A stretch of DNA of 59,535 nt from Anaerolineae bacterium. GTDB taxonomy: Bacteria > Chloroflexota > Anaerolineae > E26-bin7. Each line of letters begins with the position of its first letter. The stretch's first letter is position 1. Under the pieces are notes generated by a model, which worked only from the letters and a program-made list of their open reading frames with translations, made no database searches and was not told where the DNA came from. The DNA is taken from the NCBI GenBank assembly GCA_041862415.1, contig JBGVTF010000292.1:1-59535 (forward strand), written 5' to 3'. The position numbers and the translations under genes were made by a program. This document shows positions 5,185-55,285 of the stretch, piece after piece.

Positions 5185-5241
5185 CCAATGACAAAAGCCG
5201 CCCCCGAATTAATCAGGAGGCGGCTTTGTAGGCATCATTGG
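5185..5241 (-). terminator. Intrinsic terminator/attenuator hairpin in the lipoprotein leader (copy B)
   Basis: Minus strand AAAGCCGCCTCC-TGATTAATTC-GGGGGCGGCTTTT, extendable by CCAATGA/TCATTGG; lies between the promoter and the start codon. Confidence 0.7.
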
Positions 5242-5311
5242 CACGGACCCCGCTCCGGAGAGCTCAGGAATCAGGGATACCAGGCATTCAGACTGGGCAA
5301 CTCTGCGCCAA
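5238..5311 (-). ncRNA. Candidate cis-regulatory RNA (riboswitch-like leader), copy B
   Basis: P1 TTGGCGC/GTGCCAA closes a CAGAGT..AGTCTG hairpin and a GGtATCCC..GCTC-TCCG-GAGC..GGGGTCC arm; near-identical copy at 11306-11379. Confidence 0.5.
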
Positions 5312-5338
5312 TCTCTTTTTTATTGCGTGGATATGGTT

Positions 5339-5367
5339 ATTATATCATACTCTAGCGTCTTTGGCAA
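5339..5367 (-). promoter_or_regulatory. sigma70-type promoter
   Basis: TTGCCA-17 bp-TATAAT with an extended -10 TG. Confidence 0.75.
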
Positions 5368-11139: not shown

Positions 11140-11252
11140 TTTTTTACCTCCTCGTTTTTGGGCCTTCCCACAGGGGGAGAGGCTGAAAGGAAACGGGCAC
11201 CGGATAAGTTATTAATCAGTCCAGCTTGGATAGAAGGGCAGAGCTTCCCCCA

Positions 11253-11309
11253 CCAATGACAAAAGCCGCCCCCGAATTAATCAGGAGGCGGCTGTGTAGG
11301 CATCATTGG
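11253..11309 (-). terminator. Leader terminator/attenuator hairpin (copy A)
   Basis: AGCCGCCTCC..GGGGGCGGCTTTT, as in copy B. Confidence 0.7.
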
Positions 11310-11379
11310 CACGGACCCCGCTCCAGAGAGCTCAAGAATTAGGGATACCAGGCATTCAGAGTAGGCAACTCTGCGTCAA
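11306..11379 (-). ncRNA. Candidate cis-regulatory RNA (riboswitch-like leader), copy A
   Basis: Perfect CAGAGT/ACTCTG hairpin, GCTC-TCTG-GAGC hairpin, closing stem TTGACGC/GTGCCAA. Confidence 0.5.
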
Positions 11380-11408
11380 TCTCTTTTTTTTATTGCGTGG
11401 ATGCAGTT

Positions 11409-11437
11409 ATTATATCATACTCTAGCGTCTTTGACAA
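11409..11437 (-). promoter_or_regulatory. sigma70-type promoter
   Basis: TTGTCA-17 bp-TATAAT with TGn extension. Confidence 0.75.
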
Positions 11438-27113: not shown

Positions 27114-27201
27114 GAAAATGCTTTAGCGCCCTGGCAGTGTGGACTCGGATAGTTATGATGGTGTGATGAGACGCCACACCCTGTCCAAAGGAGGGGCCAA
27201 C

Positions 27202-27966
27202 ATGCAGCAAAGGGTAAAGACGGGTATCGAAGGGCTGGACGACATGCTTCATGGTGGATTTCTACCCCAGACGGCCAACTTGATCGAAGGAGCCACCGGT
27301 ACAGGTAAGACCACATTGGGCATGCAATTCATTTATAATGGCATCACCAAGTACAACGAACCGGGCTTGATCATTACCTTTGAGGAGTTCCCACAGCAAT
27401 ACTATCGGGATGCAGCTACTTTCGGCTGGGACTTTAAAAAGCTCGAGCAAGAGGGTAAGCTCAAGATCGTCATGACCAGCCCTGAAGTGACCAAACTGGA
27501 TTTGGAGAGGGTGGGAGGTATGATCGAGACCCTGGTGACTGAGATGGGAGCACGGCGTATCCTGATTGATAGCCTATCTCACTTTGAGAGATTGAGCTCC
27601 GACCCTATTGAGCTACGTATTATCGAGTACAGCCTCATCAATGCCCTTAAGCGAGAGGGACTGACCAGTGTCTTGACCAGGGAAAACTCCACCCTGCTAG
27701 GAGAAGCTGAGAGTGAGGATGAAAACGTTACCTTCATCGTGGATTCCTACATACTTATGAGATATGTGGAAATCGAAAGCGCCATACACAAGGCCCTCCT
27801 CGTCCTCAAGCTCCGAGGCAGTGACCATGCTAAGGATATCAGAAAGTATGAGATCACGTCCCAGGGCATCAAAGTCCAGGCCAAGTTCGAAGGCCAGGAA
27901 GGTATCATGAGTGGCAGCCCCCGTCGCATGGCCGAGTCCTTTATCGAGGCTTTCGTCAGAAGGTGA
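27202..27966 (+). CDS. Single-domain KaiC-like (RecA superfamily) ATPase
   Basis: TGIEGLDDML.GG, Walker A GATGTGKT, TFEE, ILIDS, KLRGSDH. Confidence 0.9.
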   Translation: MQQRVKTGIEGLDDMLHGGFLPQTANLIEGATGTGKTTLGMQFIYNGITKYNEPGLIITFEEFPQQYYRDAATFGWDFKKLEQEGKLKIVMTSPEVTKLDLERVGGMIETLVTEMGARRILIDSLSHFERLSSDPIELRIIEYSLINALKREGLTSVLTRENSTLLGEAESEDENVTFIVDSYILMRYVEIESAIHKALLVLKLRGSDHAKDIRKYEITSQGIKVQAKFEGQEGIMSGSPRRMAESFIEAFVRR

Positions 27967-28020
27967 GGGGGTGAGGCGACAACTGGACCGCCAGGGAATA
28001 GGAGAAAAGACCCATCTATC

Positions 28021-28317
28021 ATGACAGCCCTCAACCTGGTTCTAATGACCTATTCTTGGGTAATTATCGCCATACTCCTTTTTTTCCTCTTCCTGATAGC
28101 CAGATTCTATGAGAGGAAAGCCCATCAGAGCTCCCGCTATCGACTTTTCCTCCTCCCCCTGGCCCTGTTCTTGCTCGGTACGCTCAGATACGATCTTCTA
28201 TCTGCCGGCAACTTTGTGGGAGACCCACTTGGAGATACCTTATTCCTTGCCGGAGGGGTGGCTACGACCATTCTTGGTTATCACCTCTTGAACTTGATGA
28301 CAGGGGGGCGGACTTGA
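28021..28317 (+). CDS. Small membrane protein (~3 TM)
   Basis: Three hydrophobic segments; stop overlaps the next start (TTGA). Confidence 0.75.
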   Translation: MTALNLVLMTYSWVIIAILLFFLFLIARFYERKAHQSSRYRLFLLPLALFLLGTLRYDLLSAGNFVGDPLGDTLFLAGGVATTILGYHLLNLMTGGRT

Positions 28318-28643
28318 ACATCGTAACTGCTGTGCTGGGCTCCGCGGGTTTGATGTCCGCCATCTACATCGTCCTGATTATGGCCAGGCTCAGTCAAAAG
28401 CTGGGAGCGGTAACCAAGATGCGAGGTTACTACCGAGGATTTTACGTCAGTGCCATATTCCTGCTAGTGTCACTGATAGCCTATTTTCTGAAGACCAGCG
28501 TGCTGCTGGCCTCCGAGCAGGCGCCAGCTTTGCTGAATAGCGATTTGCTCTATTTGTTCACTTACTACCTGCCATTTGCCATAGGTACAAGCATCAGTCT
28601 GGCTATCACCCTTCGCTATTGGGATTGGCTGCTTAAGGGATAG
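28314..28643 (+). CDS. Small membrane protein (~3 TM)
   Basis: Three hydrophobic segments; translationally coupled; ends YWDWL. Confidence 0.75.
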   Translation: MNIVTAVLGSAGLMSAIYIVLIMARLSQKLGAVTKMRGYYRGFYVSAIFLLVSLIAYFLKTSVLLASEQAPALLNSDLLYLFTYYLPFAIGTSISLAITLRYWDWLLKG

Positions 28644-28650
28644 AGCGGAG

Positions 28651-31600
28651 ATGAACCAAATGGCACCAGTGTCCAGTAATTTAAGCGACATCGTCGAACG
28701 GAAACATTCGCGCGATGAGGAACTCTTTGCCCTTGATGCCATCGCCGCCTTAGTGAATCGCTCCACTGACCTGGAGGAGATCCTGAATAACACCCTGGTC
28801 ACAGCGTTAGAAGTGACAGAAACGGATGCGGGGGGTATTTTCGTACGGGATGAAGAGACGAACGAGTTGCGTCTCGTTGCCCATAGTGGGCTTTGGCCAG
28901 AGCTTACCCAACGGATCAGGGAATCGCAAGGCGACCAGGGCAGCCTATTCGGACGAGTGGCTCAGAAAGGGAGCCCAATTGTAGTCGAGGACATTGCCAG
29001 GGAACCTGGACTCAGTGATTTAGCGGGTGAGGGACACCAGGCTCTTGTCGGGGTACCCCTCAGCCTGAGAGAGACATTGCTTGGGATGATGATCGTGACC
29101 AGCCACTCTCCTCGCCAGTTCGCCCCCGAGGATATGACGTTCCTCACCTGTGTCAGCAATCAACTAGGGACAGCCTTTGAGAAAATTCGGTTATACCAAG
29201 AAGTTGAGCGCCGTGCTGAAGAAACGGCTGTCCTCCACGATATTGGTGTAGCCACGGCCTCCACTTTGGAGTTATATGAAGCGCTGGAGCTGATCTATGA
29301 GCAGGTGGGGAGAACAATGAAAATCTCCACTTTTTTTGTCGCTCTTTACGATGAGCAGAACGAAGAGCTGAACTTTGAACTGTTTGTTGATAGAGAAAAG
29401 CGTTTGGAGAGATTTAGTGTGCCTCTTGCTGGCCTGACTGGCTGGATCGTTCGCTCGCGGCAACCCCTCCTGATCCACAACCTTGAAGAGGAGAAGGATA
29501 ATCTCCCGGCCGAAGCCATGATGATAGGTGAAGAACACAGCAAGTCCTGGCTGGGAGTGCCCCTTATGGTCAAGGACTATGTGATCGGTGCCATCTCCGT
29601 GCAAAGCTATCAGCCCCACGCCTTCGACGAGGGGCATGAGCGCCTCCTGGCTGCCATTGCCTCTCAAGCTGCCCTGGTCATTGAGAACGCCCGTCTCTAT
29701 GCCCAGAGCCAGCAGAGAGTAAAAGAGCTTTCGAGCCTCTTTCAAGCTGGCGTCGCCACATCATACAGCCTGGAAGTCGAGGAGGTGTTGCGCAACCTGG
29801 CCAGACGGGTGGGCCGGGTCGTTGATGCCACCAGTGTCTGTATTTGGGATGGGAACCCAGAAACCCAGACAGCCACCCTCCTGGCGCACCATACTGGACC
29901 TGAGGCTACAGAACGGGAACGCATCTCTCGTCTCGGCGCGACCTATTCCATATCGGATTGCCCCATTACCCTGGGAGTGCTACGCACCCGCCAACCGCTG
30001 AGCATCAGCGTCAGTGACCCTCATACAGGTGAAGGTGACAAGGCACGCCTGCTGGAATTGGGTGGAAAAACGTCTCTGATAGTACCCTTGATGACAAGGG
30101 ATAGAATCATCGGTTTCATTGATCTATTGGAAAGTCGCCGGGAGCGACAGTTCGACCACAGGGAGACTCGCCTATGCCAGACTATAGCCAACCAGGCAGC
30201 TATTGCCGTTGAGAACGCTTGGCTGTACGAGGGCGAACGGAAAAGGGTAGCTCAGCTCAAAACCATTGGCGAGGTAGGACGGCAGATTGCTTCGATGCTG
30301 GACCTGGATGAGCTGTTGCATCAGGTGGTTAACTCCCTGGTTGACGTTTTCGCTTATTACAGTGCCAGTATTTTCTTGGTAGACGCTGATGTGGGAGAGA
30401 TTGTCCTCCAAGCCAGTGCTTGCCATCACAGGCAGATAGACGAGGGGCTCCGGCTCAAGATCAGTGAGGAAGGGATCACGAGCTGGGTGGCTCAAGCAGG
30501 TGAGCCCCTTCTGGTCAACGATGTAGCTAAGGACCCTCGCTATCGTTTCGTGGAAGAACTGAGTGACACGAGATCAGAGTTGGCTGTCCCCATCAGGGCC
30601 AAGGGAGATATCATAGGTGTACTGGATGTGCAAAGCACCCAACTCAACGCTTTTGACGCAGAGGACCTCTTCACCCTCTTGACCTTGGCCGATCAAGTCT
30701 CTGTGGCCATCGAGAACGCCCAACTGTACAGGCAAACACAGCACCGCCTGTCCGAGGTCTCTACCCTTTACGCCCTGGCCAAGCAGATGATCAGCAGCCT
30801 TGAGTTGGATGCTGTGCTGGATTCCATCGTCAGTGCGCTAAAGTTGTCCATCAACTGCCGCGCCTGCTCGCTATTTCTCCTCGATAAGAAGAGCCAGATG
30901 CTGGAGATCAAGACTGCGGCCGGAATCAAGCGCAAGTGGCGAAAAGAAGCCAGGCTGAAAGTGGGAGAAGGCATTGCTGGCAAGGTGGCGGCGGAAGCGA
31001 AGCCCCTCTATATTCCTGATACCCGTCAGGATCCGAGCTTCATCCCTTTTGACCCGGCTGTGCGCTCCCTGCTGGTAGTGCCCATGATCAGCAGGGACAA
31101 AGCCATCGGCGCCCTTTGCATCGATGACAACAAGCCAGACGCCTTCAGCCCCGATGACGGGCGGCTTTTGACCATTGCTGCCGCACAAGCGGCCGTAGCC
31201 ATAGAGAATGCTCAGCTCTACGAGAGTTCGAAAAAGAGGGCAGAAGAATTGGCCAAAGCCTACGATGAACTCAAGGCTCTCGGCCAACTTCAACAAGAGT
31301 TCGTGCAGAATGTGTCCCATGAACTGCGCACCCCTTTGACTTTTATTAAAAGCTATGTGGAGTTGATCCTAGAGGAGGCAATGGGCGAGCTCAATGAGTC
31401 GCAACGGAATAGTCTGCAGATTGTGGCCCAGCGCGCAGATGCCATGACGCGTCTCATCAACAACATCCTCTCCTTGCAACAAGTTGAAATGGAGTCTCTG
31501 CGGCCGACTCGTGTGTCTCTGGCCGAAGTGGCAACGACGGTTTTGGAAAGCGCGGAGGCAGCAGCTACCAAAGCTGGCATCGTCTTAAAGGCGGAGATGC

Positions 31601-32001
31601 CAGAGACTTTGCCTCCCGTGTTGGTTGATCGCAATTGCCTTGAACAAGTCTTCGATAATCTCTTGGGCAATGCCATCAAATTCAGCCCCGATGGGGGTAA
31701 AATCACCGTGTGCATCAGGGAGGAAGGCGAATATTTGCGCGTAGCAGTCTCTGACACGGGTATCGGCATCGCCAATGACCAGTTGGAGAGGATTTTTGAA
31801 CGTTTCTACCAGGTCAATGGCCGCCCTATTCGACATTTCGGTGGCTCCGGTCTTGGACTGGCTTTGGTTAAGAAGGCCATTGAAGTTCACGGAGGGAAAG
31901 TATGGGCTGAGAGCCGGTTGGAACAGGGCAGCACTTTCTTTTTCACCCTGCCCATCCTGAAAGATGAGGAAGGAGCAGAAGGAGGCAAGGAAGCGCCGTG
32001 A
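28651..32001 (+). CDS. Cytoplasmic sensor histidine kinase with five GAF domains
   Basis: Five repeats ending in (I/V/F)E(N/K)xxLY; HisKA SHELRTPL; HATPase NAIKFS, DTGIG, GGSGLGL. Confidence 0.93.
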   Translation: MNQMAPVSSNLSDIVERKHSRDEELFALDAIAALVNRSTDLEEILNNTLVTALEVTETDAGGIFVRDEETNELRLVAHSGLWPELTQRIRESQGDQGSLFGRVAQKGSPIVVEDIAREPGLSDLAGEGHQALVGVPLSLRETLLGMMIVTSHSPRQFAPEDMTFLTCVSNQLGTAFEKIRLYQEVERRAEETAVLHDIGVATASTLELYEALELIYEQVGRTMKISTFFVALYDEQNEELNFELFVDREKRLERFSVPLAGLTGWIVRSRQPLLIHNLEEEKDNLPAEAMMIGEEHSKSWLGVPLMVKDYVIGAISVQSYQPHAFDEGHERLLAAIASQAALVIENARLYAQSQQRVKELSSLFQAGVATSYSLEVEEVLRNLARRVGRVVDATSVCIWDGNPETQTATLLAHHTGPEATERERISRLGATYSISDCPITLGVLRTRQPLSISVSDPHTGEGDKARLLELGGKTSLIVPLMTRDRIIGFIDLLESRRERQFDHRETRLCQTIANQAAIAVENAWLYEGERKRVAQLKTIGEVGRQIASMLDLDELLHQVVNSLVDVFAYYSASIFLVDADVGEIVLQASACHHRQIDEGLRLKISEEGITSWVAQAGEPLLVNDVAKDPRYRFVEELSDTRSELAVPIRAKGDIIGVLDVQSTQLNAFDAEDLFTLLTLADQVSVAIENAQLYRQTQHRLSEVSTLYALAKQMISSLELDAVLDSIVSALKLSINCRACSLFLLDKKSQMLEIKTAAGIKRKWRKEARLKVGEGIAGKVAAEAKPLYIPDTRQDPSFIPFDPAVRSLLVVPMISRDKAIGALCIDDNKPDAFSPDDGRLLTIAAAQAAVAIENAQLYESSKKRAEELAKAYDELKALGQLQQEFVQNVSHELRTPLTFIKSYVELILEEAMGELNESQRNSLQIVAQRADAMTRLINNILSLQQVEMESLRPTRVSLAEVATTVLESAEAAATKAGIVLKAEMPETLPPVLVDRNCLEQVFDNLLGNAIKFSPDGGKITVCIREEGEYLRVAVSDTGIGIANDQLERIFERFYQVNGRPIRHFGGSGLGLALVKKAIEVHGGKVWAESRLEQGSTFFFTLPILKDEEGAEGGKEAP

Positions 32002-43535: not shown

Positions 43536-46500
43536 CTATTTTACCTCTACCCATCCCAGGTCTATGGCGTGAGCGTTGGGATCATCCTCCCACCACAACC
43601 GGCTCCCGTCCTCCGGCCGCCACAGCCCCAATGTGAAATGATACCGCCCCGGCTTCAATCCCCTCACCTCATCATCCTGATACACTTCCCCCACCCACCA
43701 TCCGGAAGTTGATAACAAATGGTCAAACACCGCATACCCGGCCTCCTTCCTCTGCCCCTCCAACAGCGACTCGTCCTCCACTTCCCCGTGCATCCACAAA
43801 GTATAGTCCTCATCCATCTCCTCAAGACACCGGAAAAAGAGACTCATTTGAGCACAGCCGTTTTCCTGCCTGGTGAGACTGTACCCCAGAAACTCTACCT
43901 TGCCCCCCAAGCTCACACTGATCTTGTGCATTATCTGCTCTGCTATCCGCTCCTCTATCTCCCCAACCTTCTCCTCTTCACCCAACCCTTTGTAAGCCCC
44001 CTTGAATAACCCAAACTCATCTACCCGCCCCGGCTCGACTCCCTCCTCCACTGCCTCCTCGTAGAGTCTCGCTACTTCACTCCGCATCTCTCTATCAGCA
44101 TAAACCTTCGCCAGATCATAGTAGTCATTCCAATTCCCGTCCCACGGACTGCTCACCTGGGCAAAGTCCATCTGGATAGGACCGTCATAATCGGTGCGCG
44201 GGTCTTGCAGCAGGTCCGGAAACACCAGGTCCACCACCCCGCGCCAGCCTACGTTATGCACCGTCTCCCTCAGTTCAGGCACCCTCAGCTCGATCACGTT
44301 CTGACCAGGGGCAGTCAGCGACCTGGCGATTCTGCGTTTTGTGGTCGTGTAGCGGCCTGATCCTATCACCCAGGTTCCCAGGTACTTCTTACGCCAGTAA
44401 GAGTTCGAGAGGTAGACCTCCACCCTGGTCTCCTCTCCCCTGGCCTTCCCCGTCCAACCAGCTACCAACTCCAAACTCTCCCTCTCCCTCAGATTGAACC
44501 GCAGAGTGAGCGGTTCAGTCGGGCTGATGATCTCGCTGCCTCCATAGCTGGCTTTACCAAAACGCCTGATAATGTGCCTCCGCCGACAAGGAATGCCCAA
44601 AGATGCCAGGCTAACTTGTGTCCTCGTCCCGTCATCCCCCTCCAACCTCAGATTGAGTGAGTACATCCCCCCAAGAAGGTAAGGATTGATGGCTATCACG
44701 GCGCTGCCCCGGTAATACTCCCCCTCCTCCCACAACCTGGTCGGCCCTATCTGCAACGTCTCTTGCACCTTGTAGCCACCGTTCCTCAGTTCCACCTGCA
44801 TAGCATAGTCCTTCTCTGCCTCCCGCAGTTTCCGCCAGTAGGTAGTGACCTGGAGCTGATCGCCTGGCTTCGGGTTCCTATCATTCAAGTCGTAGCCCAC
44901 GAACACCAACCCATCGTTGATGTCCACCGCAACTCTGTTCTGCGGCCGGGGCTCAGCCGCCAAAGGGCTCGGCCTCTCGGCGGGCACAACCTCTATCTCT
45001 CCCAGCCTGACCCTGTTCTCTTCATCCACCTCAACATCGCTCACCACCTCCAGCTCCTCTTCCTCATCTCGCACCCCCACCCATAAAGCGTGTCTGACCG
45101 GTGGATAGTCCACCGGCACCTCGACTTGGTATTCCTCCCTGATTACCTCCCCCATCCGCCACATCGAGGTCGGATAGGCCCCGTTCACCCCCTGATGGCT
45201 CTGGTCTATGCGATAGGTCTCGCCATGATACCCGTCAAACTGGGTGACCAGGGTGTAGTCCTCTTCCATCTCCTCCAGGCATTGCCAGAAGTAGGTGATG
45301 CGAAAGGTCGTTCGATGCGCCGGCATCAACTCGGCGTGGGCGTTGAGATACTTCTCCAGCCACGAAGGCCCCTGCTTCTTCTGGACCACCTCCTCCACAT
45401 TGCAACCCAGAAACATCAACTTATCGTCAAAGTTAACCTTAGCTGGGTGTTCGATCCGGGGATTTTGGAGGATGGTGTTGGAACCCGCCTCGCGCAGATC
45501 GAAGAAGGAATAGCCGTAGACGGTCTCCGTAGGGTGGTTCCTGACCAGGTATTCTCTCAATTTCTCGTCGACCGATCCCGCATCACGAAGAATGTAGTGA
45601 CTGTAGGATGGATCTGTTTGTATCCGGCTTGTCAGACCCTGAAGGCTCCTCACCACCGGCCAGGATCTGTCAGCATAGAAAATCATATAGTAATCCTCAA
45701 AATCTCCCATCACAATTGCGTTTCTATCCGTAACCTCATTGATCTTGCTACCTATCAGGAAACGATCGGCGTCTACATACACACTATGAAGACGTCTCAA
45801 GGCAACAGTTGCTTGCGTAGCAAGAAGATAACAGACGATTAAAAAGAATGGTACGGTCAACACCTGTTTGTTGAAAAGGACTTTTTCAGCAACAAATCTT
45901 GCTCCCAGGGCAGCAAGGATGGCAAAAAGTGGGCTAAAATCAAATACCATATCGAAATCATGGATGTAAACCATGTTGCTCAATGCCAGGTTCTGGCTGA
46001 GACCGAAGAGAAAAAGAGCTGCAATGGACATATCTTGGCTCGTCAGTTTCTTGTGAAGAGGCATGGAGATGAAATCTATGAGCCACACAACCGATAAAGT
46101 GCAGATAGTAGGGGTGAGGAAAAACTTGAAGCGGGCATATGCAATGGCATAGAAATCCCATCTAGTAAATACGTATATGCCTTCCGTAACGCCGCCGGAG
46201 ATTGTCCTCTGCAGAAACTTGTCAAATAATTGTCCAACGCCTCCTTTCCCCACTAATAAGTAACTCCAGCCCAAGTGAGCAGCCAGGAGCATTACTGGCA
46301 AGAGGCCAAAAGATAGCACGAATTTTAGGTTTTTGGTCCCCCTGTACTCGCAGACCAGATAGTGCAAAAGAAGCGGCGGAACCACAAAGTAGGAAGGCCA
46401 GTCTGATAATGCAGCCAGGATAAAACTAGGGTATATGGCAGCATACCATTTCGTGCTCCTCGTTTCCACCCACCGTAGATAAGAAGCAATGGTCAGCCAT

Positions 46501-47036
46501 GAGAAGAACGAACCCAAGATATGTGGAACAGGAAGCGCACTGTAATAGGCTTGCACCGGGAGCAGAGCAAAAAAGAGAGAGGCGATCAAAGCTATTCCCT
46601 TGCCACCTAACTTGCGGCCTAGCCAAAAAACAAGCGGTAGAAGCCCCAATGAGGTAAGTAGGGGGACCAGCCTGATGCTCCATTCATGGATGCCGAAGAG
46701 ACGGTAGCTCAGCGATATTAACAGCGGTAGCAGAGGAGGATGGTCAACGCGGTAATGGAATGGCTTGGCCCATCCATGATGTTGGACCAGCCCGAGTTTG
46801 GTTTCAAGATAGCCGAACTTCAGGTAGTTTCGGGCCACGCCACCCCATTCGCACAGAGTGAAACCATGCCAGCCATCTAGCGGGACGCCGCGCAACGAAA
46901 TGCCGTAATGAGTGCTATCCCATCCAGGTTCAGCTATTCTGTAGCAGCGAAGCACTGCAGCGAGTATCAGAATTGGAACGAGAACCAGATACTCTGCCTT
47001 CCCCTTCTGGCAAAGACGCTTCCAGAATGCCAGCAC
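43536..47036 (-). CDS. GT-C (ArnT/PMT, GT83/GT39-like) glycosyltransferase with large extracellular C-terminus, paralog 3
   Basis: DHPPL, LFGIHEWSIRL, many TMs; three F.GY..W beta domains; GTG start after AGGAGG. Confidence 0.85.
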   Translation of the reverse strand: MLAFWKRLCQKGKAEYLVLVPILILAAVLRCYRIAEPGWDSTHYGISLRGVPLDGWHGFTLCEWGGVARNYLKFGYLETKLGLVQHHGWAKPFHYRVDHPPLLPLLISLSYRLFGIHEWSIRLVPLLTSLGLLPLVFWLGRKLGGKGIALIASLFFALLPVQAYYSALPVPHILGSFFSWLTIASYLRWVETRSTKWYAAIYPSFILAALSDWPSYFVVPPLLLHYLVCEYRGTKNLKFVLSFGLLPVMLLAAHLGWSYLLVGKGGVGQLFDKFLQRTISGGVTEGIYVFTRWDFYAIAYARFKFFLTPTICTLSVVWLIDFISMPLHKKLTSQDMSIAALFLFGLSQNLALSNMVYIHDFDMVFDFSPLFAILAALGARFVAEKVLFNKQVLTVPFFLIVCYLLATQATVALRRLHSVYVDADRFLIGSKINEVTDRNAIVMGDFEDYYMIFYADRSWPVVRSLQGLTSRIQTDPSYSHYILRDAGSVDEKLREYLVRNHPTETVYGYSFFDLREAGSNTILQNPRIEHPAKVNFDDKLMFLGCNVEEVVQKKQGPSWLEKYLNAHAELMPAHRTTFRITYFWQCLEEMEEDYTLVTQFDGYHGETYRIDQSHQGVNGAYPTSMWRMGEVIREEYQVEVPVDYPPVRHALWVGVRDEEEELEVVSDVEVDEENRVRLGEIEVVPAERPSPLAAEPRPQNRVAVDINDGLVFVGYDLNDRNPKPGDQLQVTTYWRKLREAEKDYAMQVELRNGGYKVQETLQIGPTRLWEEGEYYRGSAVIAINPYLLGGMYSLNLRLEGDDGTRTQVSLASLGIPCRRRHIIRRFGKASYGGSEIISPTEPLTLRFNLRERESLELVAGWTGKARGEETRVEVYLSNSYWRKKYLGTWVIGSGRYTTTKRRIARSLTAPGQNVIELRVPELRETVHNVGWRGVVDLVFPDLLQDPRTDYDGPIQMDFAQVSSPWDGNWNDYYDLAKVYADREMRSEVARLYEEAVEEGVEPGRVDEFGLFKGAYKGLGEEEKVGEIEERIAEQIMHKISVSLGGKVEFLGYSLTRQENGCAQMSLFFRCLEEMDEDYTLWMHGEVEDESLLEGQRKEAGYAVFDHLLSTSGWWVGEVYQDDEVRGLKPGRYHFTLGLWRPEDGSRLWWEDDPNAHAIDLGWVEVK

Positions 47037-47074
47037 TCCTGTCCTCCTATCCGATGATGAGTGGAGATTCCGCC

Positions 47075-50000
47075 CTACTTCACCTCCACCCAACCCAAGT
47101 CTATGATGTGTCCCTCGGGATCATCCTCCCTCCACAGCCGGCTCCCATCCTCCGGTCGCCATAACCCCAGGGTGAAATGATACTGTCCTGGCCTCAACCC
47201 CCTCGCCTCATCATCCTGATACACTTCCCCCACCAGCCATCTGGAAGTTGGCAACAAATGGTCAAACACTGCATACCCGGCCTCTCTTCTCTGTCCCTCC
47301 AACAGCGACTCGTCCTCCACCTCCCCATGCACCCAGAGAGTGTAGTCTTCCTCCATCTCCTCCACACAGCGGAAGAAGAGGCCCATTTGAGTGCAACCAT
47401 CGTCCAGCCTGGTGAGACCATAGCCCAGGAACTCCACCTTCCCTCCCAGGTTCACACTCATCTTGTGCGGTATCCGGCCGGCTATCCGCTCCTCTATCTC
47501 CCTAATCCTCTCCTCTTCCCCCGACGCCTCATAGGCTCCTTTGAACAACGAAAAGTCGTCAACTCGCTCCGGTTCAAGCCCCTCCTCCACCGCTTCCTCG
47601 TACAGTCTTACCACTTCGCCTTGCATCCCTCTCTCGGCGTAAACCTTCGCCAGGTCATAGTAGTCATCCCAATTCCTCTCCCAACGGGTGCTCACTTGGG
47701 CAAAGTCCATCTGGATAGGACCGTCATAGTCGGTGCGCGAGTCCTGTAGAAGGTCCGGCAAGACCAGGTCCACCCATCCTCGCCATCCTACGTTGTGCAC
47801 CCTCTCCCTCAGTTCAGGCACCCTCAGCTCGATCACGTTCTCTCCAGGGGCCGTGAATACCTTGCCAATCTTCCGCTTCGTCACCCGATAATCCCCTGAT
47901 TCCACCACCCAAGTTCCCAGGTATCTGTCACGCCAATAGGCATTCGAAATGTAGGCCTCCACTCTTGTTTCCTCCCCTCCTGCCCTGCCCGTCCAGCCAG
48001 CCAGGAGTTCTATAGCCTCTCTCTCTTTGAGATTGAAACACAGAGACAATGGCTTTTCTGGACTGAGGATCTCACCGCCACCGTAGTTTGCTTTCCCCAC
48101 GCGCTTAATGATGTGCCGCCGCTGCCTAGGGTAGACACCCAGAGTGGCCAATCCAATCTCAGTTGTTGACTGACCACTGTCCAAGTCCAACTTCAGGGAG
48201 TATGTACCTTCGAGAGCGTATGGATTCACAGGAATGATGGTATCGGCCCGATAGTATTCACCCTCTTGCCATAGCCTGGTAGGGGCCAAGTCCACAAGCT
48301 GATCCACCTTATACCCACCATCTCCTATCTCAGCCATAATGGTGTAGTCCCTGCCCATTTGCCTTAAACTTTGCCAGTAGGTGGTTATCTTGAGTTCCTC
48401 GCCCGCTGTAGGGTCGCTCTTGTTCAGGTCATAGCCCAGAAACAGTAGTTCATCATTGATGTCCACCTCGACTTTGTTCTGCGGCCGTGGTTCACCCACC
48501 AAAGGCGACGGCCTCTCCACAGGTAGAACCTCTATTTCCCCTAGCCTGACCCTGTCCTCCTCATCTGCCTCAACATCGCTCACCACGTCCAGCCCCTCTT
48601 CTCCATCCCGCACCCCCACCCATAAAGCATATCTTATCGGTGGATAGTCCGCCGGTACCTCCACCTCGTATTCTTCCCTGATTATCTCTCCCACCCGCCA
48701 GAACGAAGTGGGATAGGCACCGTTGACACCTTGGTGGCTCTGCTCTATGCGATAGATTCTACCATACCGCCCTTCAAGCTGCGCTATGAGGGTGTAATCC
48801 TTTTCCAGTTCCTCCAGGCACTGCCAGAAGTAAGTGATTCGAAAAGTGGTGCGATGTTCCGGCAAAAGCTCGGCGTGGGCGTTGAGATACTTCTCCAGCC
48901 AGGAAGGCTCCCTTTTCTTCTGAACCACTTCCTCCACGTTGTAGCCCAGAAACATCAACTTGTCACCAAAGTTGATGCTGGCCGGATGTTCGATCTGAGG
49001 CCTCCGTACGACCACGTTAGACCCCGTCTCCCACAGATCAAACAGACAGTATTTGCCAAAGGTCTGCATGGGATGGTTCCTGATCAGATGCTCTCTCAAG
49101 TCTTTGTCCACTGGCCAAGTGGTGTCCATCACGTAGTGACTGTATGATGAATCCGTTTGCAACCGTCTACTGAGATCGTTGAGGCTGGTTGTAACTGACC
49201 ATGGTCTATCGGCATAGCGAGCCAGACGTAGCTCTGGCTGGAATGAAGCTACCACTTTCGCCTTTTGATCCGTGATTTGGTCTATCTTGGTCCCCAAGAA
49301 ATAGAGGTCGGGCACTATGACCCTGTTATGAAGGTGTTTCAGAGTTGAGATGGACTGCAAGCTACAAAAGTAGCAGATAGCCAGGCCGAACAGGACAGTC
49401 CAGAACCACTTGCCATGTAAAATTCTCTCAGTAATGTATTGCACTCCAAGAGCTGCAGCAATGACAAAGAAAGGAGTTATGTGAAAGAGCATAGTGTAGT
49501 CATGAACGTAGACCCAATTACTGAAGCTCAGATTGTGAGCAAATCCAAAGAAGCCCAAAGCGAGGAGGATGAAACCACTCTGCTTTGAGGAATTCTTTTG
49601 AAGAAGTGAGACAACGAGACGAGCAATTCCTAAGACCGAAAGAAAATAGATCACTGGAGTCAACATCAGCCTGGAACGCACGAGCCCCTGAATGAAGAAA
49701 TCTGACACAGTGAATCTAGGAAAGTCCACCAGTGGGCCGGCGGATACTGTTCTGAAGAGGAACTGGTCAAACAGTCCTTTGAGGATTCCTGTGCCGCCTA
49801 CCCAATAGGCCCAACCAAAGCAAGTAGCAAAGACGGCTATCGGCACCAAGCTAAACAGGATCACAAACCGCAAGTTCCTGAGCCTTCTATATTCGAACAA
49901 TAGGTAGTGCAAAAGAATGACAGGAACTACAAAGTAAGCAACCCAATCCGAGAAGCTACCTAATACGAAGCTCAGGTACATCCCTAGGTAGTATCCCCTT

Positions 50001-50593
50001 GTTCCATACTCTACCCACCATAGGTAGAAGGCAAAGGTGAGCAATGAGAAAAATGTAGCCAGGATGAAACAATCAGGTATCCTGGAGTAGTAGGCATACA
50101 TGGGGGTCATAATAAGAAAGAGGGACGCAAGCAAAGCTATCCTCTGAGTCGCCAGTTTTTTCCCCAGCAAGAACACCAGTACAAGGATGCCGGCGGAGCA
50201 AGTCACAGGAATCAATCTGGCACTCCAGGCATGGACACCGAAAAGCTGAAAGCTGAGTGAAAGAAGGAGGGGAAGTAGAGGGGGATGGTTCACATAGTAG
50301 GTGAAGCCGCCTTTTGGTTTGTCCCATCCATAATTGCTGACTGGGAAGATCTTGGTCGTGAGATACCCAAACTTTAAGTAGTTTTGAGCGAGAAGGCTAT
50401 TTCCGGTCAGGATGAAGCTGTGAGGGGGCTCTTCCCAGCCAGGCTCATCTGATCTATAGGAGCCGATCACTATGCTGGCCACGAGGATGAGTCCAAAGAT
50501 GAAGTATGCTATGTAAGAGGCAATCTTTGTGAAAGGGGAATGGAATTCATTTGAGACTCTTGCGAAACTACGTTTGGGTTTCGGAATCAGCAT
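47075..50593 (-). CDS. GT-C glycosyltransferase, paralog 2
   Basis: NHPPL, FGVHAWSARL, same C-terminal domains. Confidence 0.85.
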   Translation of the reverse strand: MLIPKPKRSFARVSNEFHSPFTKIASYIAYFIFGLILVASIVIGSYRSDEPGWEEPPHSFILTGNSLLAQNYLKFGYLTTKIFPVSNYGWDKPKGGFTYYVNHPPLLPLLLSLSFQLFGVHAWSARLIPVTCSAGILVLVFLLGKKLATQRIALLASLFLIMTPMYAYYSRIPDCFILATFFSLLTFAFYLWWVEYGTRGYYLGMYLSFVLGSFSDWVAYFVVPVILLHYLLFEYRRLRNLRFVILFSLVPIAVFATCFGWAYWVGGTGILKGLFDQFLFRTVSAGPLVDFPRFTVSDFFIQGLVRSRLMLTPVIYFLSVLGIARLVVSLLQKNSSKQSGFILLALGFFGFAHNLSFSNWVYVHDYTMLFHITPFFVIAAALGVQYITERILHGKWFWTVLFGLAICYFCSLQSISTLKHLHNRVIVPDLYFLGTKIDQITDQKAKVVASFQPELRLARYADRPWSVTTSLNDLSRRLQTDSSYSHYVMDTTWPVDKDLREHLIRNHPMQTFGKYCLFDLWETGSNVVVRRPQIEHPASINFGDKLMFLGYNVEEVVQKKREPSWLEKYLNAHAELLPEHRTTFRITYFWQCLEELEKDYTLIAQLEGRYGRIYRIEQSHQGVNGAYPTSFWRVGEIIREEYEVEVPADYPPIRYALWVGVRDGEEGLDVVSDVEADEEDRVRLGEIEVLPVERPSPLVGEPRPQNKVEVDINDELLFLGYDLNKSDPTAGEELKITTYWQSLRQMGRDYTIMAEIGDGGYKVDQLVDLAPTRLWQEGEYYRADTIIPVNPYALEGTYSLKLDLDSGQSTTEIGLATLGVYPRQRRHIIKRVGKANYGGGEILSPEKPLSLCFNLKEREAIELLAGWTGRAGGEETRVEAYISNAYWRDRYLGTWVVESGDYRVTKRKIGKVFTAPGENVIELRVPELRERVHNVGWRGWVDLVLPDLLQDSRTDYDGPIQMDFAQVSTRWERNWDDYYDLAKVYAERGMQGEVVRLYEEAVEEGLEPERVDDFSLFKGAYEASGEEERIREIEERIAGRIPHKMSVNLGGKVEFLGYGLTRLDDGCTQMGLFFRCVEEMEEDYTLWVHGEVEDESLLEGQRREAGYAVFDHLLPTSRWLVGEVYQDDEARGLRPGQYHFTLGLWRPEDGSRLWREDDPEGHIIDLGWVEVK

Positions 50594-50596
50594 AGC

Positions 50597-53500
50597 CTAC
50601 TTGACCTCTACCCAGCCTAGCTCCACGGCGTGTTGGTCAGGGTAATTTGCGAGCCACAACCGGCTGCCATCCTCCGGTCGCCACAGCCCCAGTGTGAAAT
50701 GATACCGCCCCGGCCTCAACCCCTTCACCTCGTCATCCTGATACACTTCCCCCACCTGCCACCTGGAAGTTGGTAACAAATGGTCAAACACCGCATACCC
50801 AGCTTCCCTTCTCTGCCCTTCCAACAGCGACTCATCCTCAATTTCCCCGTGCACCCACAATGTGTAGTCCTCTCCCATCTCCTCCAGACACCGGAAGAAG
50901 AGACTGATCCCACGGTCATCTTTTTCCCCTCTCGGGCTATGACCCAGGAACGCTACCTTGCCTCCCAGATTCACGCTCATCTTGTCTGCTATGTGTTCTG
51001 CTACCCGCTCCTCTATCTCCCCAACTTTTCCCTTCTCCCCCAACGCGACGTAGGCTCCCTTGAAAAGTACCAGATCGTCAACCCGCTCCAGCTCCGCTCC
51101 CTTGTCCACTGCCTCCTCGTACAGCCTCGCTATCTCGCCATCCATCTCTCTCCCATCGTATACCCTCGCCAAATCATAGTAGTCGTCCCAGTTCCCCTCC
51201 CAACGGGTACTCACTTGGGCAAAATCCATCTGGATCGGCCCCGCATAATCGGTGCGCGGGTCTTGTAGGAGGTCTGGGAACACCAAGTCCACCCATCCTC
51301 GCCAGCCTACGTTATGCACCGTCTCCCTCACTTCAGGCACCCTCAGCTCGATCACGTTCTGACCAGGGGCAGTCAGTGACCTGGCGATTCTGCGTTTTGT
51401 GGTCGTGTAGCAGCCTGATCCTATCACCCAGGTTCCCAGGTACTTTTTACGCCAGTAAGCATTCGAAATGTAGACTTCCACCCTGGTCTCCTCCCCCCTG
51501 GCCTTGCCTGTCCAACCGGCCACAAGCTCCAGTGCTTCTCTCTCCCCCAAATCGAACCGCAGAGAAAGCGGTTCGTCCGAGCTGATGATCTCGCTACCGC
51601 TGTAATCGGTCTTCCCCACACGCCAGATGATGTGACGTCGCTGCCGGGAGTGGATGTCCAGAGTGGTCAGTTCGATCCTGGTATCCGACTGGTCGCTATC
51701 CAGGCATAGATTCAGGGAGTAAGTCCCACCAAGGAGATGAGAGTTGAGAGGGATTACGGTTTCGGCCCGGTAGTACCTGCCTCCCTCCCACACCCTGGTT
51801 GGGGCGATGTCCAAGACCTGGCTTACTTTGTATTTGCCATTTCGCACTTCCAACGAGATAGCATAGTCCCTACCTGTCTGCTTCAAGCTCTGCCAAGATG
51901 TGACGATCCGAAGTTTATCGCCTGGCGTCAGGTCGGCTTTGTTCAGGGCATAACCGAGGAAGAGGATCTCGTCTTCGACTGGAACTTCGAGTTTGGTTGC
52001 CACCGCTGGTGCTTTAACCAGACCCACCGCTCTCTCGGCAGGAGCAACTTCTATCTCTCCCACCTTGACCCGGTTGGACTCGTCGGTTTCGACCTCGCTG
52101 GACACACTCAGTTCTTCCTCGCCATTTCGGACTCTGACCCAGAGAGCGTATCGGATGGGGGGATACTCGGCCGGCACTTCCACCTGGTACTCTTCTCGGA
52201 TGACTTCACCCTTTGACCAGAGAGAAGTTGGATAGATACCATTGACGCCCTGGTGGCTCTGGTCTATGCGATAGGTCTGGCCATGATGCCCTTCAAACTG
52301 GGTGAGCAGAGTGTAGTCCTTTTCCATCTCCTCCAAGCATCGCCAGAAGTAGGTGATGTGAAAGGTCGTTCGATGCTCTGGCATCAGTTCAGCGTGGGCG
52401 TTGAGATACTTCTCCAGCCACGATGGCTCCTTCTTCTTCTGGACTGTCTCCTCCACATTGTAACCCAGAAACATCAACTTATCGTCAAAGCTGACCTCGG
52501 CTGGATGTTCGATCATGGGGGTTTGGAGGATGGTATTGGAACCTGCCTCGCGCAGGTTGAAGAAGGAATAGCCATAGAAAGTCTCCACGGGGTAGTTTCT
52601 GACTAGGTGCTCTTTCAGATTTCCATCTATCCGCTCCGTGGATTCAGAGTCGGAGACGTACAAGCTGTAGCGCGAATCTGCGTGCGAGAGCCTTACCAGG
52701 GTGTCCAGGTCTGTCGTCACAGTCCAGGGCCTGTCGGCATAGAAACCCATACGATAGTCTAATGCAAAAGGAGCCATTACTTTGGCTGTTTCATCTGTCA
52801 GCGCACTTATCCGGGTCCCAATGAGATAGAGATCAGGCAACACACTTACCTGGTGGAGTAGTCTTAGGGTAGAAAACGACTGAAGAGCCAAACAGCAGCA
52901 CACAACCAGCACAAAGGGAACAGCCCAAGTTATTCTATTCAGCAAAACCTTCTCAATAATGAACTCCACTCCGAGAGCAGCAGCGATGACAAAGAAAGGA
53001 AGCAAGTGAAAGAGCATGGTGAAGTCGTGAATGAAGACACTGCTGCGAAATAACAGATTGTGGCTGAGCCCGAAAAGGAGGAGGGCAAGGACGAAAGCAT
53101 CCTGTCTGGAGGACTCTTTTTTAAATAGTCCAGCCACAAGGACTATACTTCCCACGATTGAAAGGAGCCAAACCGTTGGACTCAGGAACAGTTTGGAGCG
53201 TGTGTATCCGATAGCATAAAAGTCCCACCAAGTGAACACGAACTGGCCTTGGCGTGCGCCAGCAGAAATGGATCTGAACAAGAACAGGTCAAGCAGATCC
53301 TGAAGAACCTCTTTCCCTCCCAACAGATAGGCCCACCCAAGGTGGGCTCCAAAAAGTATGAATGGTAGGATAGCAAACGAGAATACGAATTTGAGGTTTC
53401 TGGTCTTTCTGTACTCATAGGTGATGTAGTGCAAGAGGATTGGCGGAACCACAAAATACGCTACCCAATTGGACAGTGCGCCAAGCACAAAGCTGATGTA

Positions 53501-54097
53501 CATTCCAAAGTAGTGGCCGCCCTTTCCTGTTTCCGTCCAACAATAGTAGAAGAGAAAAGTCAGTAGAGAGAAGGATGTGGCTAGAATTTGCGTAGCCGGC
53601 AATTTGCTGTAATAAACGTACAAGGGAGTCAGACCGAGGAGGAAGGATGCGAGCAGGGCTGTCCTGCCTCGGGCCAATCTGCGCGCCAAAAGGAATACAA
53701 GTAGCAGCATAGCCGCTGACGAGAGCACAGGAACCAGGCGAGCACTCCATTCGTGGATACCGAAAAGCCTGAAGCTTGTGGAGATCAACAAGGAATTTAG
53801 AGGAGGATGGTCAAATTGATACTCAAAAGACTCTGGAGACTCGACCCACCCATGACTTATCATTCGCCCAAGCTTGGTTCTGAGATAGCCAAACTTGAGA
53901 TAGTTTTGAGCTATGGTGCCACCTAGGACCACTTCAGTGCCGTGAAAGCCATCCAGCGGAGCCCTACCATGAGTATCATCCCACGCTGGCTCCGCGATTC
54001 TGTAACAACTGAGCACCATGGCCACTACCAAAATCAGGGCCAAGACCAAGTATTCCAAGATGTGCTTCTTAGAATCAGCGATCTTTGAGAGTGACAT
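50597..54097 (-). CDS. GT-C glycosyltransferase, paralog 1 (alternative start 54181)
   Basis: DHPPL, FGIHEWSARL, same C-terminal domains. Confidence 0.85.
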   Translation of the reverse strand: MSLSKIADSKKHILEYLVLALILVVAMVLSCYRIAEPAWDDTHGRAPLDGFHGTEVVLGGTIAQNYLKFGYLRTKLGRMISHGWVESPESFEYQFDHPPLNSLLISTSFRLFGIHEWSARLVPVLSSAAMLLLVFLLARRLARGRTALLASFLLGLTPLYVYYSKLPATQILATSFSLLTFLFYYCWTETGKGGHYFGMYISFVLGALSNWVAYFVVPPILLHYITYEYRKTRNLKFVFSFAILPFILFGAHLGWAYLLGGKEVLQDLLDLFLFRSISAGARQGQFVFTWWDFYAIGYTRSKLFLSPTVWLLSIVGSIVLVAGLFKKESSRQDAFVLALLLFGLSHNLLFRSSVFIHDFTMLFHLLPFFVIAAALGVEFIIEKVLLNRITWAVPFVLVVCCCLALQSFSTLRLLHQVSVLPDLYLIGTRISALTDETAKVMAPFALDYRMGFYADRPWTVTTDLDTLVRLSHADSRYSLYVSDSESTERIDGNLKEHLVRNYPVETFYGYSFFNLREAGSNTILQTPMIEHPAEVSFDDKLMFLGYNVEETVQKKKEPSWLEKYLNAHAELMPEHRTTFHITYFWRCLEEMEKDYTLLTQFEGHHGQTYRIDQSHQGVNGIYPTSLWSKGEVIREEYQVEVPAEYPPIRYALWVRVRNGEEELSVSSEVETDESNRVKVGEIEVAPAERAVGLVKAPAVATKLEVPVEDEILFLGYALNKADLTPGDKLRIVTSWQSLKQTGRDYAISLEVRNGKYKVSQVLDIAPTRVWEGGRYYRAETVIPLNSHLLGGTYSLNLCLDSDQSDTRIELTTLDIHSRQRRHIIWRVGKTDYSGSEIISSDEPLSLRFDLGEREALELVAGWTGKARGEETRVEVYISNAYWRKKYLGTWVIGSGCYTTTKRRIARSLTAPGQNVIELRVPEVRETVHNVGWRGWVDLVFPDLLQDPRTDYAGPIQMDFAQVSTRWEGNWDDYYDLARVYDGREMDGEIARLYEEAVDKGAELERVDDLVLFKGAYVALGEKGKVGEIEERVAEHIADKMSVNLGGKVAFLGHSPRGEKDDRGISLFFRCLEEMGEDYTLWVHGEIEDESLLEGQRREAGYAVFDHLLPTSRWQVGEVYQDDEVKGLRPGRYHFTLGLWRPEDGSRLWLANYPDQHAVELGWVEVK

Positions 54098-54182
54098 CTT
54101 CCTACTGCCAGAATCTATAAGGTTGAGTATCTGGCCGACGCCAAAACCTATCCCTTCAACCACAGCTTGGCTGCCAGCCATT

Positions 54183-55133: not shown

Positions 55134-55285
55134 AATTACTACCTATTCTACTCTTTAATGCCCAAGGCTTGGCTTTGGATGAAAGAGACAGGGATATCGG
55201 TTGCTCTATCCCATACCTGGTGGGCAACCGGCCTTGCTGCGTCTGGACATAGCATAGACAGTAAAGGATACATGCCTTGATTGGC

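Follow-up and report, generated by a model that had tools for sequence, protein, structure and literature searches.

A covarying, multi-copy family of leader RNAs with the predicted anatomy of transcription attenuators in Anaerolineae

Introduction

The PyrR-dependent pyr attenuators of Bacillus carry, in a promoter-proximal leader that recurs in several copies per genome, three mutually exclusive hairpins, the first of which protects the terminator by sequestering the antiterminator strand; the PyrR protein stabilises this anti-antiterminator. They are the closest mechanistic analogue of an element that occurs twice on the minus strand of a 59,535-nucleotide (nt) stretch of DNA from Anaerolineae bacterium (contig JBGVTF010000292.1 of assembly GCA_041862415.1; the whole stretch is referred to below as the window). 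Copy 1 of the element lies at 5367-5185 and copy 2 at 11437-11253, each ahead of a gene for an immunoglobulin (Ig)-like lipoprotein, and a preliminary description of the window had presented them as a candidate riboswitch or attenuator. Here we show that both belong to a family of leader RNAs, in which a hairpin designated P2 would take the part of the first pyr hairpin. Unlike the pyr attenuators, the family has no Rfam PyrR match and heads mixed accessory genes instead of pyrimidine genes.

Other described systems share some of these features. Like the c-di-GMP-I (GEMM-I) riboswitches, the family is multi-copy, with heterogeneous targets that include surface proteins and with a terminator-based expression platform, but there is no match in sequence or structure, and here the terminator forms the conserved core while the first hairpin, P1, is free to vary. 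The leaders served by RfaH or LoaP and the lambda PR'-6S-tR' leader served by Q likewise combine a strong promoter and a short terminated transcript with long accessory or horizontally acquired operons, although they need no antiterminator helix within the RNA, whereas this family keeps one. BOX and Correia repeats resemble it in being multi-copy, modular and RNA-foldable, with promoter or terminator activity beside unrelated genes, and differ from it in its strict co-orientation, its retention at orthologous loci and its conserved putative switch helix. Repressors of the WYL type (BrxR/CapW) offer a parallel at another level, as one control element heading many unrelated defence systems, BREX included; these are DNA-binding proteins with a gene of their own, whereas the present element is an RNA leader with no dedicated protein gene adjacent.

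Results

A covarying leader RNA family in Anaerolineae

The two window elements belong to a multi-copy family of leader RNAs whose helices covary and which no Rfam 15 family matches. With pattern scans and a covariance model, about 90 distinct relatives were recovered from Anaerolineae genomes and metagenomes, among them 6 further copies in the genome from which the window comes. In the shared layout, a consensus-like promoter with a TG-extended -10 box precedes an A-rich tail and hairpin P1; a short joint connects P1 to hairpin P2, which has an internal loop, and a conserved linker connects P2 to the terminator-like hairpin P3 and its U-rich run. The family fold is a row of these three hairpins, with no three-way junction, and its members fall into subtypes, labelled A to E and beyond.

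Sequence search alone overlooks the family, because BLASTN with copy 1 finds only the two copies in their own genome and, in 40 relatives, nothing better than E 0.0197. The longer copy 2, used as a BLASTN query against 401 genomes of the class, returned matches in genomes G009 and G363 and two short ones, of which that in G187 is a member and that in G188 lies in apparent coding sequence. A degenerate pattern of the P3 hairpin, derived from these sequences, was scanned against two collections, genome_contigs and metagenome_contigs. It hit 30 loci in the former, comprising 12 members, labelled Anaerolineae, Anaerolineales and, once, Dehalococcoidia, and 18 chance matches in coding sequence of unrelated phyla; the 78 loci in the latter comprised 60 members and 18 chance matches. 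Membership was judged from reading the flanks and afterwards checked by the covariance model. This model (R1) was built from a MAFFT alignment of 41 type A and type B sequences, none of them of the window subtype, and matches both window copies over their full length (copy 1, 41.6 bits, E 9.7e-10; copy 2, 30.0 bits, E 1.2e-6). The 6 additional copies that it finds lie on other contigs of the same genome and form a further subtype, whose P1 has the same shape and a wholly different sequence. Across 151 sampled genomes of the class, 18 carry matches at E <= 1e-3, with up to 12 per genome, whereas 150 other genomes of the phylum yielded one weak match only.

The proposed helices are supported by covariation. 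Over 97 aligned matches, 93.7% of the cells in the three helices pair, a share that 0 of 500 column shuffles attain (83.8% pair in these) and that falls to 40-61% in slid-partner controls, and 31 of the 32 helix pairs have changed on both sides, with 227 compensatory cells where 42.6 are expected; these pair counts are inflated, the alignment having been fitted to the structure of the model. About 90 of the 97 rows were judged true members, three being reverse-strand artefacts and a few 3' fragments. Compensation is also directly visible in the listed subtype sequences, where P1 differs by lineage and is self-complementary in each. When applied to the alignment of 41 sequences, RNAalifold returned P1, P2 and P3 with RIBOSUM scoring and an alternative long-range helix with default scoring. 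At least 5 T occur within the 9 nt that follow the GC stem of P3 in 83 of the 97 rows. Conservation is strongest in the terminator hairpin and the linker; P1 changes completely between subtypes and P2 partly, while an A-rich stretch ahead of P1 is present in all of them, and -10 boxes of the TGATATAAT type also precede subtypes other than that of the window. An all-against-all scan of column covariation for a pseudoknot gave subtype-driven correlations only, with no run of adjacent pairs. By inspection, the 5' strand of P1 is repeated within the linker of some members, as a rival partner of the P1 3' strand that is not conserved across subtypes.

The preliminary description could not match the element by eye to the c-di-GMP-I/II, c-di-AMP, TPP, SAM, cobalamin or T-box consensus, and the Rfam searches agree: in gathering mode the window gave 0 matches, in E-value mode the best hit to either window region reached at most 18.2 bits against cut-offs of 35-60, and a permissive search of ten member loci of other subtypes gave two chance-level matches that lie off the elements (E 0.14 and 0.24). 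Among the papers listed by full-text literature searches on riboswitches in Anaerolineae and structured noncoding RNAs in Chloroflexi, none concerns the motif. The covarying homologues, whose absence had been named as grounds for abandoning the proposal, exist, as the double changes at 31 of 32 pairs in the 97 matches indicate.

Some members depart from the simple layout or extend it. In type A units (for example L067, L070, L093 and L100) a conserved terminator-like hairpin, GCCACC...GGTGGC followed by a T-run, stands about 60-95 nt 5' of the -35 box; with this hairpin and its conserved loop placed just 5' of the promoter, the conserved unit amounts to about 245 nt. Type E copies from the genome of the window (L162, L163, L169) have a common conserved stretch of about 60 nt upstream of the -35 box. 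Locus L055 holds two tandem copies 579 nt apart, separated by a gene for a DUF5679 zinc-ribbon protein whose Lys/Gly-rich tail extends into the second copy; L097 holds two overlapping, divergent copies on opposite strands. Partial 3' copies occur at L086, L148 and L160. A promoter-less variant without the usual 5' half of P1 (L073, L077, L127, L152) lies within an apparent operon, flanked by an ABC-transporter ATPase-like gene and a gene starting MNSRERVIAVLGHELPDRVP, an arrangement seen in four assemblies.

Position and orientation relative to downstream genes

For the analysis of downstream genes, every stop-to-stop frame of at least 70-80 amino acids (aa) on both strands was scanned against Pfam at E <= 1e-4. 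Among 58 loci from the pattern scans, same-strand Pfam families were present in 18 (95 frames) and opposite-strand families in none (77 frames); among 33 loci from the model search of genomes, the corresponding numbers were 24 and 2. The two opposite-strand cases, each with a thioesterase (L184, L186), are the weakest model matches and resemble plain terminators. The resulting total of 42 same-strand loci against 2 opposite ones, counted over loci that are not all independent, is as expected for a 5' leader, whereas neither a small RNA that stands alone nor a repeat inserted at random should show such a bias. The distance from the element to the next start codon ranges from about 20 to 300 nt.

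The genes that follow the leader share no common pathway or metabolic theme. Several are of defence type: in three genomes the leader is immediately followed by BrxF and BrxC (549-578 bits for BrxC), and other loci encode DrmD/HmaA-type SNF2 helicases, DruE-like helicases, AbiEi, a ThsB-like TIR protein (219.8 bits), proteins of the SMEK/Argonaute-associated nuclease type, a type I restriction subunit, a type IIG enzyme and the STAND NTPases AlbA_2-NACHT and AlbA_2-NB-ARC. Others are small proteins of the Gp49 and DUF4160/DUF2442 types, a LacI regulator, an excisionase-type helix-turn-helix protein, DinB_2, two UbiE methyltransferases and two short-chain dehydrogenases, a Bmp binding protein, a Vut_1 transporter and, at the cell surface, Ig-like lipoproteins. 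In the genome of the window, the leader on contig C464 (locus L165, 1676-2572) heads a full-length sigma-70 paralogue with regions 1.1, 1.2, 2 and 3. Because 5 of 27 other window open reading frames (ORFs), taken as a control, were matched by PADLOC through generic domains, no enrichment in defence genes is claimed from the raw PADLOC rate, and only high-scoring hallmark matches and Pfam were used; the four target proteins of the window have no PADLOC match.

A predicted alternative helix between P2 and P3

The 5' arm of P3 and the first bases of its loop find a complement in the 3' half of P2 and the adjoining 3' flank. Over the 97 rows, the 9 core pairs of this alternative helix are paired in 87.7% of cells and a set of 14 pairs in 82.7%, against 26-61% in slid controls. 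When the region from P2 to the P3 loop was folded with the 3' arm of the terminator withheld, the P2 3' half paired with the terminator arm in 69 of 90 members, with its own 5' half in 17 and with neither in 4. The helix of a typical type A member comprises 16 pairs with one bulge, and P2 remains complementary to the terminator 5' arm even between subtypes that diverge in the sequences of P2 and P3. The predicted anatomy of the family, as modelled from these folds, is that of an attenuator with a terminator, an antiterminator and an anti-antiterminator.

Architecture of the two window copies

Both window copies have a promoter that scores 11/12 with a TG ahead of the -10 box. In copy 1 (5339-5367) the -35 box TTGCCA (5367-5362) is followed by a 17-nt spacer, TG at 5347-5346 and the -10 box TATAAT (5344-5339); copy 2 (11409-11437) reads TTGTCA-17-TATAAT, also with the TG extension. 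They are the top two of 6 promoter-like sites found between 3900 and 12500, where shuffles give 1.8 +/- 1.4, and in neither copy did the promoter scan find a second promoter-like site between the terminator and the start codon. Transcription of copy 1 would start near 5332, as judged from the sequence. The A-tract that follows is A6 in copy 1 (5316-5321) and A8 in copy 2 (11384-11391).

The P1 domain of copy 1 (5283-5315), assigned by homology and inference, has an inner helix CAGA 5305-5302/TCTG 5292-5289 and a degenerate outer one, GAGATT 5315-5310/AATGCC 5288-5283, in which 4 of 6 positions pair; that of copy 2 (11351-11383), placed by homology, has CAGAG 11373-11369/CTCTG 11361-11357 inside and is likewise degenerate outside. 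P2, the putative anti-antiterminator, is recognisable in copy 1 (5248-5276) as CCCTG 5276-5272/CGGGG 5252-5248 around TTCC 5270-5267/GGAG 5256-5253, and the minimum-free-energy fold extends it by TGGTAT 5282-5277/GTGCCA 5244-5239. In copy 2 (11316-11344) the corresponding pairings are CCC 11344-11342 with GGG within 11319-11316, and TTCT 11338-11335/GGAG 11324-11321. The linker of copy 1 (5228-5247) contains the AT(T/G)(A/G)T(A/G)-type stretch that is conserved family-wide, here AATGATGCC.

P3 is canonical in both copies. In copy 1 it spans 5191-5227, with the 5' arm at 5227-5216, the loop at 5215-5206, the 3' arm at 5205-5194 and the U-run TTTTGT at 5196-5191 (inner stem 5219-5201, full stem 5227-5194); in copy 2 it spans 11259-11295, with the inner stem at 11287-11269, the full stem at 11295-11262 and the U-run at 11264-11259. 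By sequence, each is a GC-rich hairpin directly followed by a U-run, as in an intrinsic terminator. An outer extension of the terminator pairs CCAATGA 5241-5235 with TCATTGG 5191-5185 in copy 1 (5185-5241 overall) and CCAATGA 11309-11303 with TCATTGG 11259-11253 in copy 2; across the 7 sequences of the window subtype, 81.6% of the cells of this extension pair, without covariation. The 186-nt leader of copy 1 folds with -74.1 kcal/mol (z = -4.49, 0 of 200 shuffles as good), and its 85-nt upstream part alone is less striking (z = -2.57, matched by 2 of 200 shuffles).

Much of the preliminary description is borne out by this comparison, namely the near-consensus promoter upstream of both lipoprotein operons on the minus strand, the A6 and A8 tracts, the GC-rich terminator with TTTTGT ahead of the ribosome-binding site and its CCAATGA/TCATTGG extension. 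The closing stem of its three-stem element (TTGGCGC/GTGCCAA, there called P1) had to be given up: it contains an A-C mismatch in copy 2 and, in the 7 subtype sequences, pairs in 60.5% of cells with 0 compensatory changes. Its antiterminator survives in part, since the core pairing of GGAG with CTCC in the terminator 5' arm is that of the family-wide alternative helix, which is however weaker in the window copies, with 0 and 3 alternative pairs in the two.

A tandem duplication and the genes around it

The lipoprotein, FHA-protein and psuG genes and both elements all lie on the minus strand. Upstream of copy 2 stands an intact psuG gene (Indigoidine_A family, 12375-11467; this and the following assignments are from Pfam). 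Downstream of copy 2 come the gene for a 489-aa CARDB/Ig-like lipoprotein (11139-9670; ribosome site GAGGAGG at 11153-11147) and that for a 960-aa FHA/Big_7/TSP_3 protein (9421-6539). The duplication junction is marked by an FHA-gene fragment (6253-5912) and by an ORF in which a Big_7 piece is fused to the last ~60 residues of psuG (5987-5397). Copy 1 follows, with the gene for a 386-aa Ig-like lipoprotein (5148-3988; ribosome site AGGAGG at 5160-5155) and that for a 995-aa FHA/Big_7/TSP_3 protein (4049-1062). The duplicated tandem unit consists of the psuG 3' end, the element, the lipoprotein gene and the FHA-protein gene, and copy 1 is the derived copy because the junction holds the FHA-gene fragment and the Big_7/psuG C-terminal fusion ORF. 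The two elements are 93% identical over 183 nt (BLASTN) and show 0 compensatory changes when taken by themselves, in keeping with the earlier caution that their similarity, arising from one duplication, is not independent evidence.

Between terminator and ribosome site, copy 1 is shorter than copy 2 by about 76 nt, and the distance from the copy 1 U-run to the ribosome site is only about 30 nt. The stretch concerned (11154-11236) is a conserved part of the 5' untranslated region (5'-UTR) of copy 2, deleted in copy 1 and common to G009, L140, L155 and L095, with relatives at L056 735-925, L140 427-592 (-), L155 437-592 (-) and L095 170-285. Within it, a pyrimidine run (CGTTTCCTT...) is predicted to pair with the region of the Shine-Dalgarno sequence and the AUG. 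Such pairing may add a translational layer of control, which the ~76-nt deletion would have removed from copy 1.

The window subtype comprises 7 sequences, the two window copies, that of G009 (L056), L082, L095, L155 and L140, and in 6 of the 7 the downstream gene is an orthologue of the lipoprotein gene, L082 standing ahead of another secreted protein. A protein search also found a lipoprotein orthologue in G002, of the same genus (83%/67% identity), with no such element in its upstream region. In G009, which belongs to another family of the class, the element precedes an orthologous lipoprotein gene (65% identity) as a complete unit that runs from promoter and A-tract through leader and terminator and includes the 5'-UTR segment by which copy 2 exceeds copy 1. 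Since the upstream gene is a different one there, the element travels with the lipoprotein gene and not with psuG.

Elsewhere in the window, a cell-envelope glycan cluster is suggested by three tandem genes for proteins of about 1170-1210 aa with an N-terminal PMT_2 glycosyltransferase domain (43536-54220, minus strand) and by the epimerase, sulfotransferase and GT2 genes that follow them (54183-56978). A KaiC-like ATPase gene and then a gene for a 1116-aa histidine kinase with five GAF domains occupy 27139-32001 on the plus strand.

Discussion

We consider it probable that each copy is a regulated attenuator, that is, a cis-acting leader RNA under the control of a trans-acting factor. In the mechanism that we propose, a leader of about 140 nt would be transcribed from its own strong sigma-70-type promoter and would decide whether RNA polymerase passes into the lipoprotein/FHA operon. 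With P2 closed, terminator P3 would form and transcription would stop; with P2 open, its 3' half would capture the 5' arm of P3 as an antiterminator and allow read-through, so that P2 would serve as an anti-antiterminator. The regulator would be a trans-acting factor that acts on the conserved part from P2 through the linker to P3. Actual termination at P3 and regulation of the switch are what we infer from the sequences. As to the effector, we judge a protein more likely than a metabolite: the mixed genes, the free variation of P1 and the near-invariance of P2, linker and P3 together argue against a metabolite aptamer and for a shared factor or a purely kinetic switch.

Several observations weigh against this attenuator. 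Covariation in the alternative helix is weak, with 14-21 compensatory cells, and its double-change pairs are not above shuffles (reached by 72-80 of 500), so that the helix rests mostly on conserved complementarity. Energies of cognate duplexes are modestly better than those of non-cognate ones (mean z -1.9), with 78 of 88 sequences belonging to a single cluster, and the cognate pair of the window does not rank first; this comparison lends the helix weak support. The window copies themselves fit the family model imperfectly. Their helices are assigned by homology because the model aligns the window subtype poorly in P1-P2, where the outer helix of P1 has 2 mismatches, and because the fold derived from copy 1 pairs in 79.4% of cells over the 7 subtype sequences against 80.5% in shuffles. 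The predicted fold of copy 1 consists of P2 and the terminator, with no alternative helix, whose duplex reaches -13.6 kcal/mol in copy 1 against -25.5 in a type A member; the window copies may terminate by default, with the predicted balance on the off side. RNA contigs (one run, 7% of sampled words) lie on the psuG remnant and the FHA fragment at 90-95% identity and none covers the leader, a distribution that is uninformative either way.

Other explanations account for parts of the data. A classical riboswitch would use P1-P2 and the junctions as an aptamer for a small molecule, for example a global second messenger, whose binding would lock P2 and lead to termination. Promoter, structured domain, terminator and competing helix do follow each other as in an OFF-riboswitch, the many copies per genome with mixed targets including surface proteins recall second-messenger riboswitches, and unpaired stretches are conserved in the A-rich tail, the linker and the P3 loop. 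In known riboswitches, however, the aptamer is the conserved part, whereas here conservation peaks in the terminator hairpin and linker and P1 is wholly variable between subtypes. Neither a multi-helix junction nor a recognisable pocket is present in the fold, none of the Rfam riboswitch families gives a match, and only part of one class carries the family (18 of 151 sampled class genomes; 1 weak match in 150 sampled phylum genomes). With neither a conserved aptamer core nor a coherent gene set, the downstream genes sharing no pathway, a riboswitch appears improbable; from the original label of riboswitch or attenuator, we retain the attenuator, as a covarying leader with a pre-emptable terminator between a strong promoter and a start codon, and not the metabolite sensor. 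Equally improbable, in our estimate, is a dispersed promoter-leader-terminator cassette blind to any signal, either BOX-like or resembling a miniature inverted-repeat transposable element, or carried along with mobile gene cassettes, which would supply accessory genes with a strong promoter that a leaky terminator tones down, the fold being maintained solely for stability or termination. It would explain the several near-identical copies per genome and lineage-specific subtypes, the partial 3' copies, the tandem and divergent overlapping pairs, the conservation that reaches into the promoter spacer and the upstream hairpin, and neighbour genes typical for mobile and defence islands. It fits poorly with the orientation data, in which insertion either way round is not what is found (42 loci against 2, the latter being the weakest model matches), with the retention of the element ahead of an orthologous lipoprotein gene across families of the class, and with a P2/terminator-5'-arm complementarity that is kept despite sequence change and that a plain terminator does not need; nor were terminal inverted repeats or target duplications seen in flanks read by eye, no systematic search having been made.

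Two simpler accounts leave out the effect of the leader on the downstream gene. The element could be a stand-alone small RNA gene of about 140 nt whose transcript would invariably stop at P3 and exert its effect in trans, with a separate promoter for the downstream gene. Its own strong promoter and terminator, the stable fold and the wide range of distances to the next start codon are compatible with this, but the 42:2 orientation bias would not be expected of independent small RNA genes, the window offers no second promoter-like site between terminator and start codon, and the ~30 nt from the U-run of copy 1 to the ribosome site leave little distance; we regard it as very unlikely. The hairpin could, as the preliminary description had also envisaged, be only the terminator of psuG, with the promoter merely serving the lipoprotein gene. 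It is indeed the first terminator-like site downstream of psuG, which ends about 30 nt ahead of the -35 box. It lies, however, downstream of the promoter and not between psuG and the promoter, copy 1 stands behind a mere 60-residue remnant of psuG, and the whole unit recurs behind unrelated upstream genes; the G009 element, ahead of an orthologous lipoprotein gene and behind a different upstream gene, excludes the scenario, and its probability is close to negligible.

Two candidates for the control of the attenuator were considered and rejected. A NusG paralogue of the RfaH/LoaP kind shows no co-occurrence with the RNA, since 7 of the 18 genomes with the RNA encode one, as do 60 of the 133 without it; an earlier sample of 10 genomes had given 5 of 5 against 2 of 5, an effect that is gone in the sample of 151. 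The genome of the window encodes two specialised 168-aa NusG paralogues, similar in size to RfaH/LoaP, that are 91% identical (C116:1560-2063, plus strand, and C441:109-612, minus strand; L199 and L200), and both genes are preceded by a similar upstream region. A ribosome-mediated attenuator with a leader peptide was rejected by inspection, as the frames MPGIPDS and MMPTKPPPD of the window and the frames through P3 are not conserved as ORFs; the short frames through P3 have no conserved start, differ in frame by subtype and are closed by TAG in some members.

A wider reading concerns the genes that the family precedes. One shared RNA switch may place unrelated anti-phage defence systems under a single common signal, to which the sigma factor and the surface operons, the two of the window included, would co-respond; we put this forward tentatively and hold it to be rather unlikely. 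Among the systems so brought together would be BREX, genes resembling those of Druantia, DISARM and Thoeris, STAND NTPases and restriction enzymes. Either a messenger linked to infection or stress or a state of the transcription machinery could serve as the common signal. If this reading is true, Anaerolineae would possess an RNA-level 'defence and accessory regulon'.

RNA regulation is poorly studied in Chloroflexota, and most Anaerolineae are uncultured. For annotation, the covariance model marks predicted transcription starts and premature stops ahead of dozens of functionally uncharacterised genes. Provided that the switch is regulated, it would reveal how Anaerolineae coordinate costly accessory functions, and would provide an RNA counterpart to the protein repressors that head defence islands.

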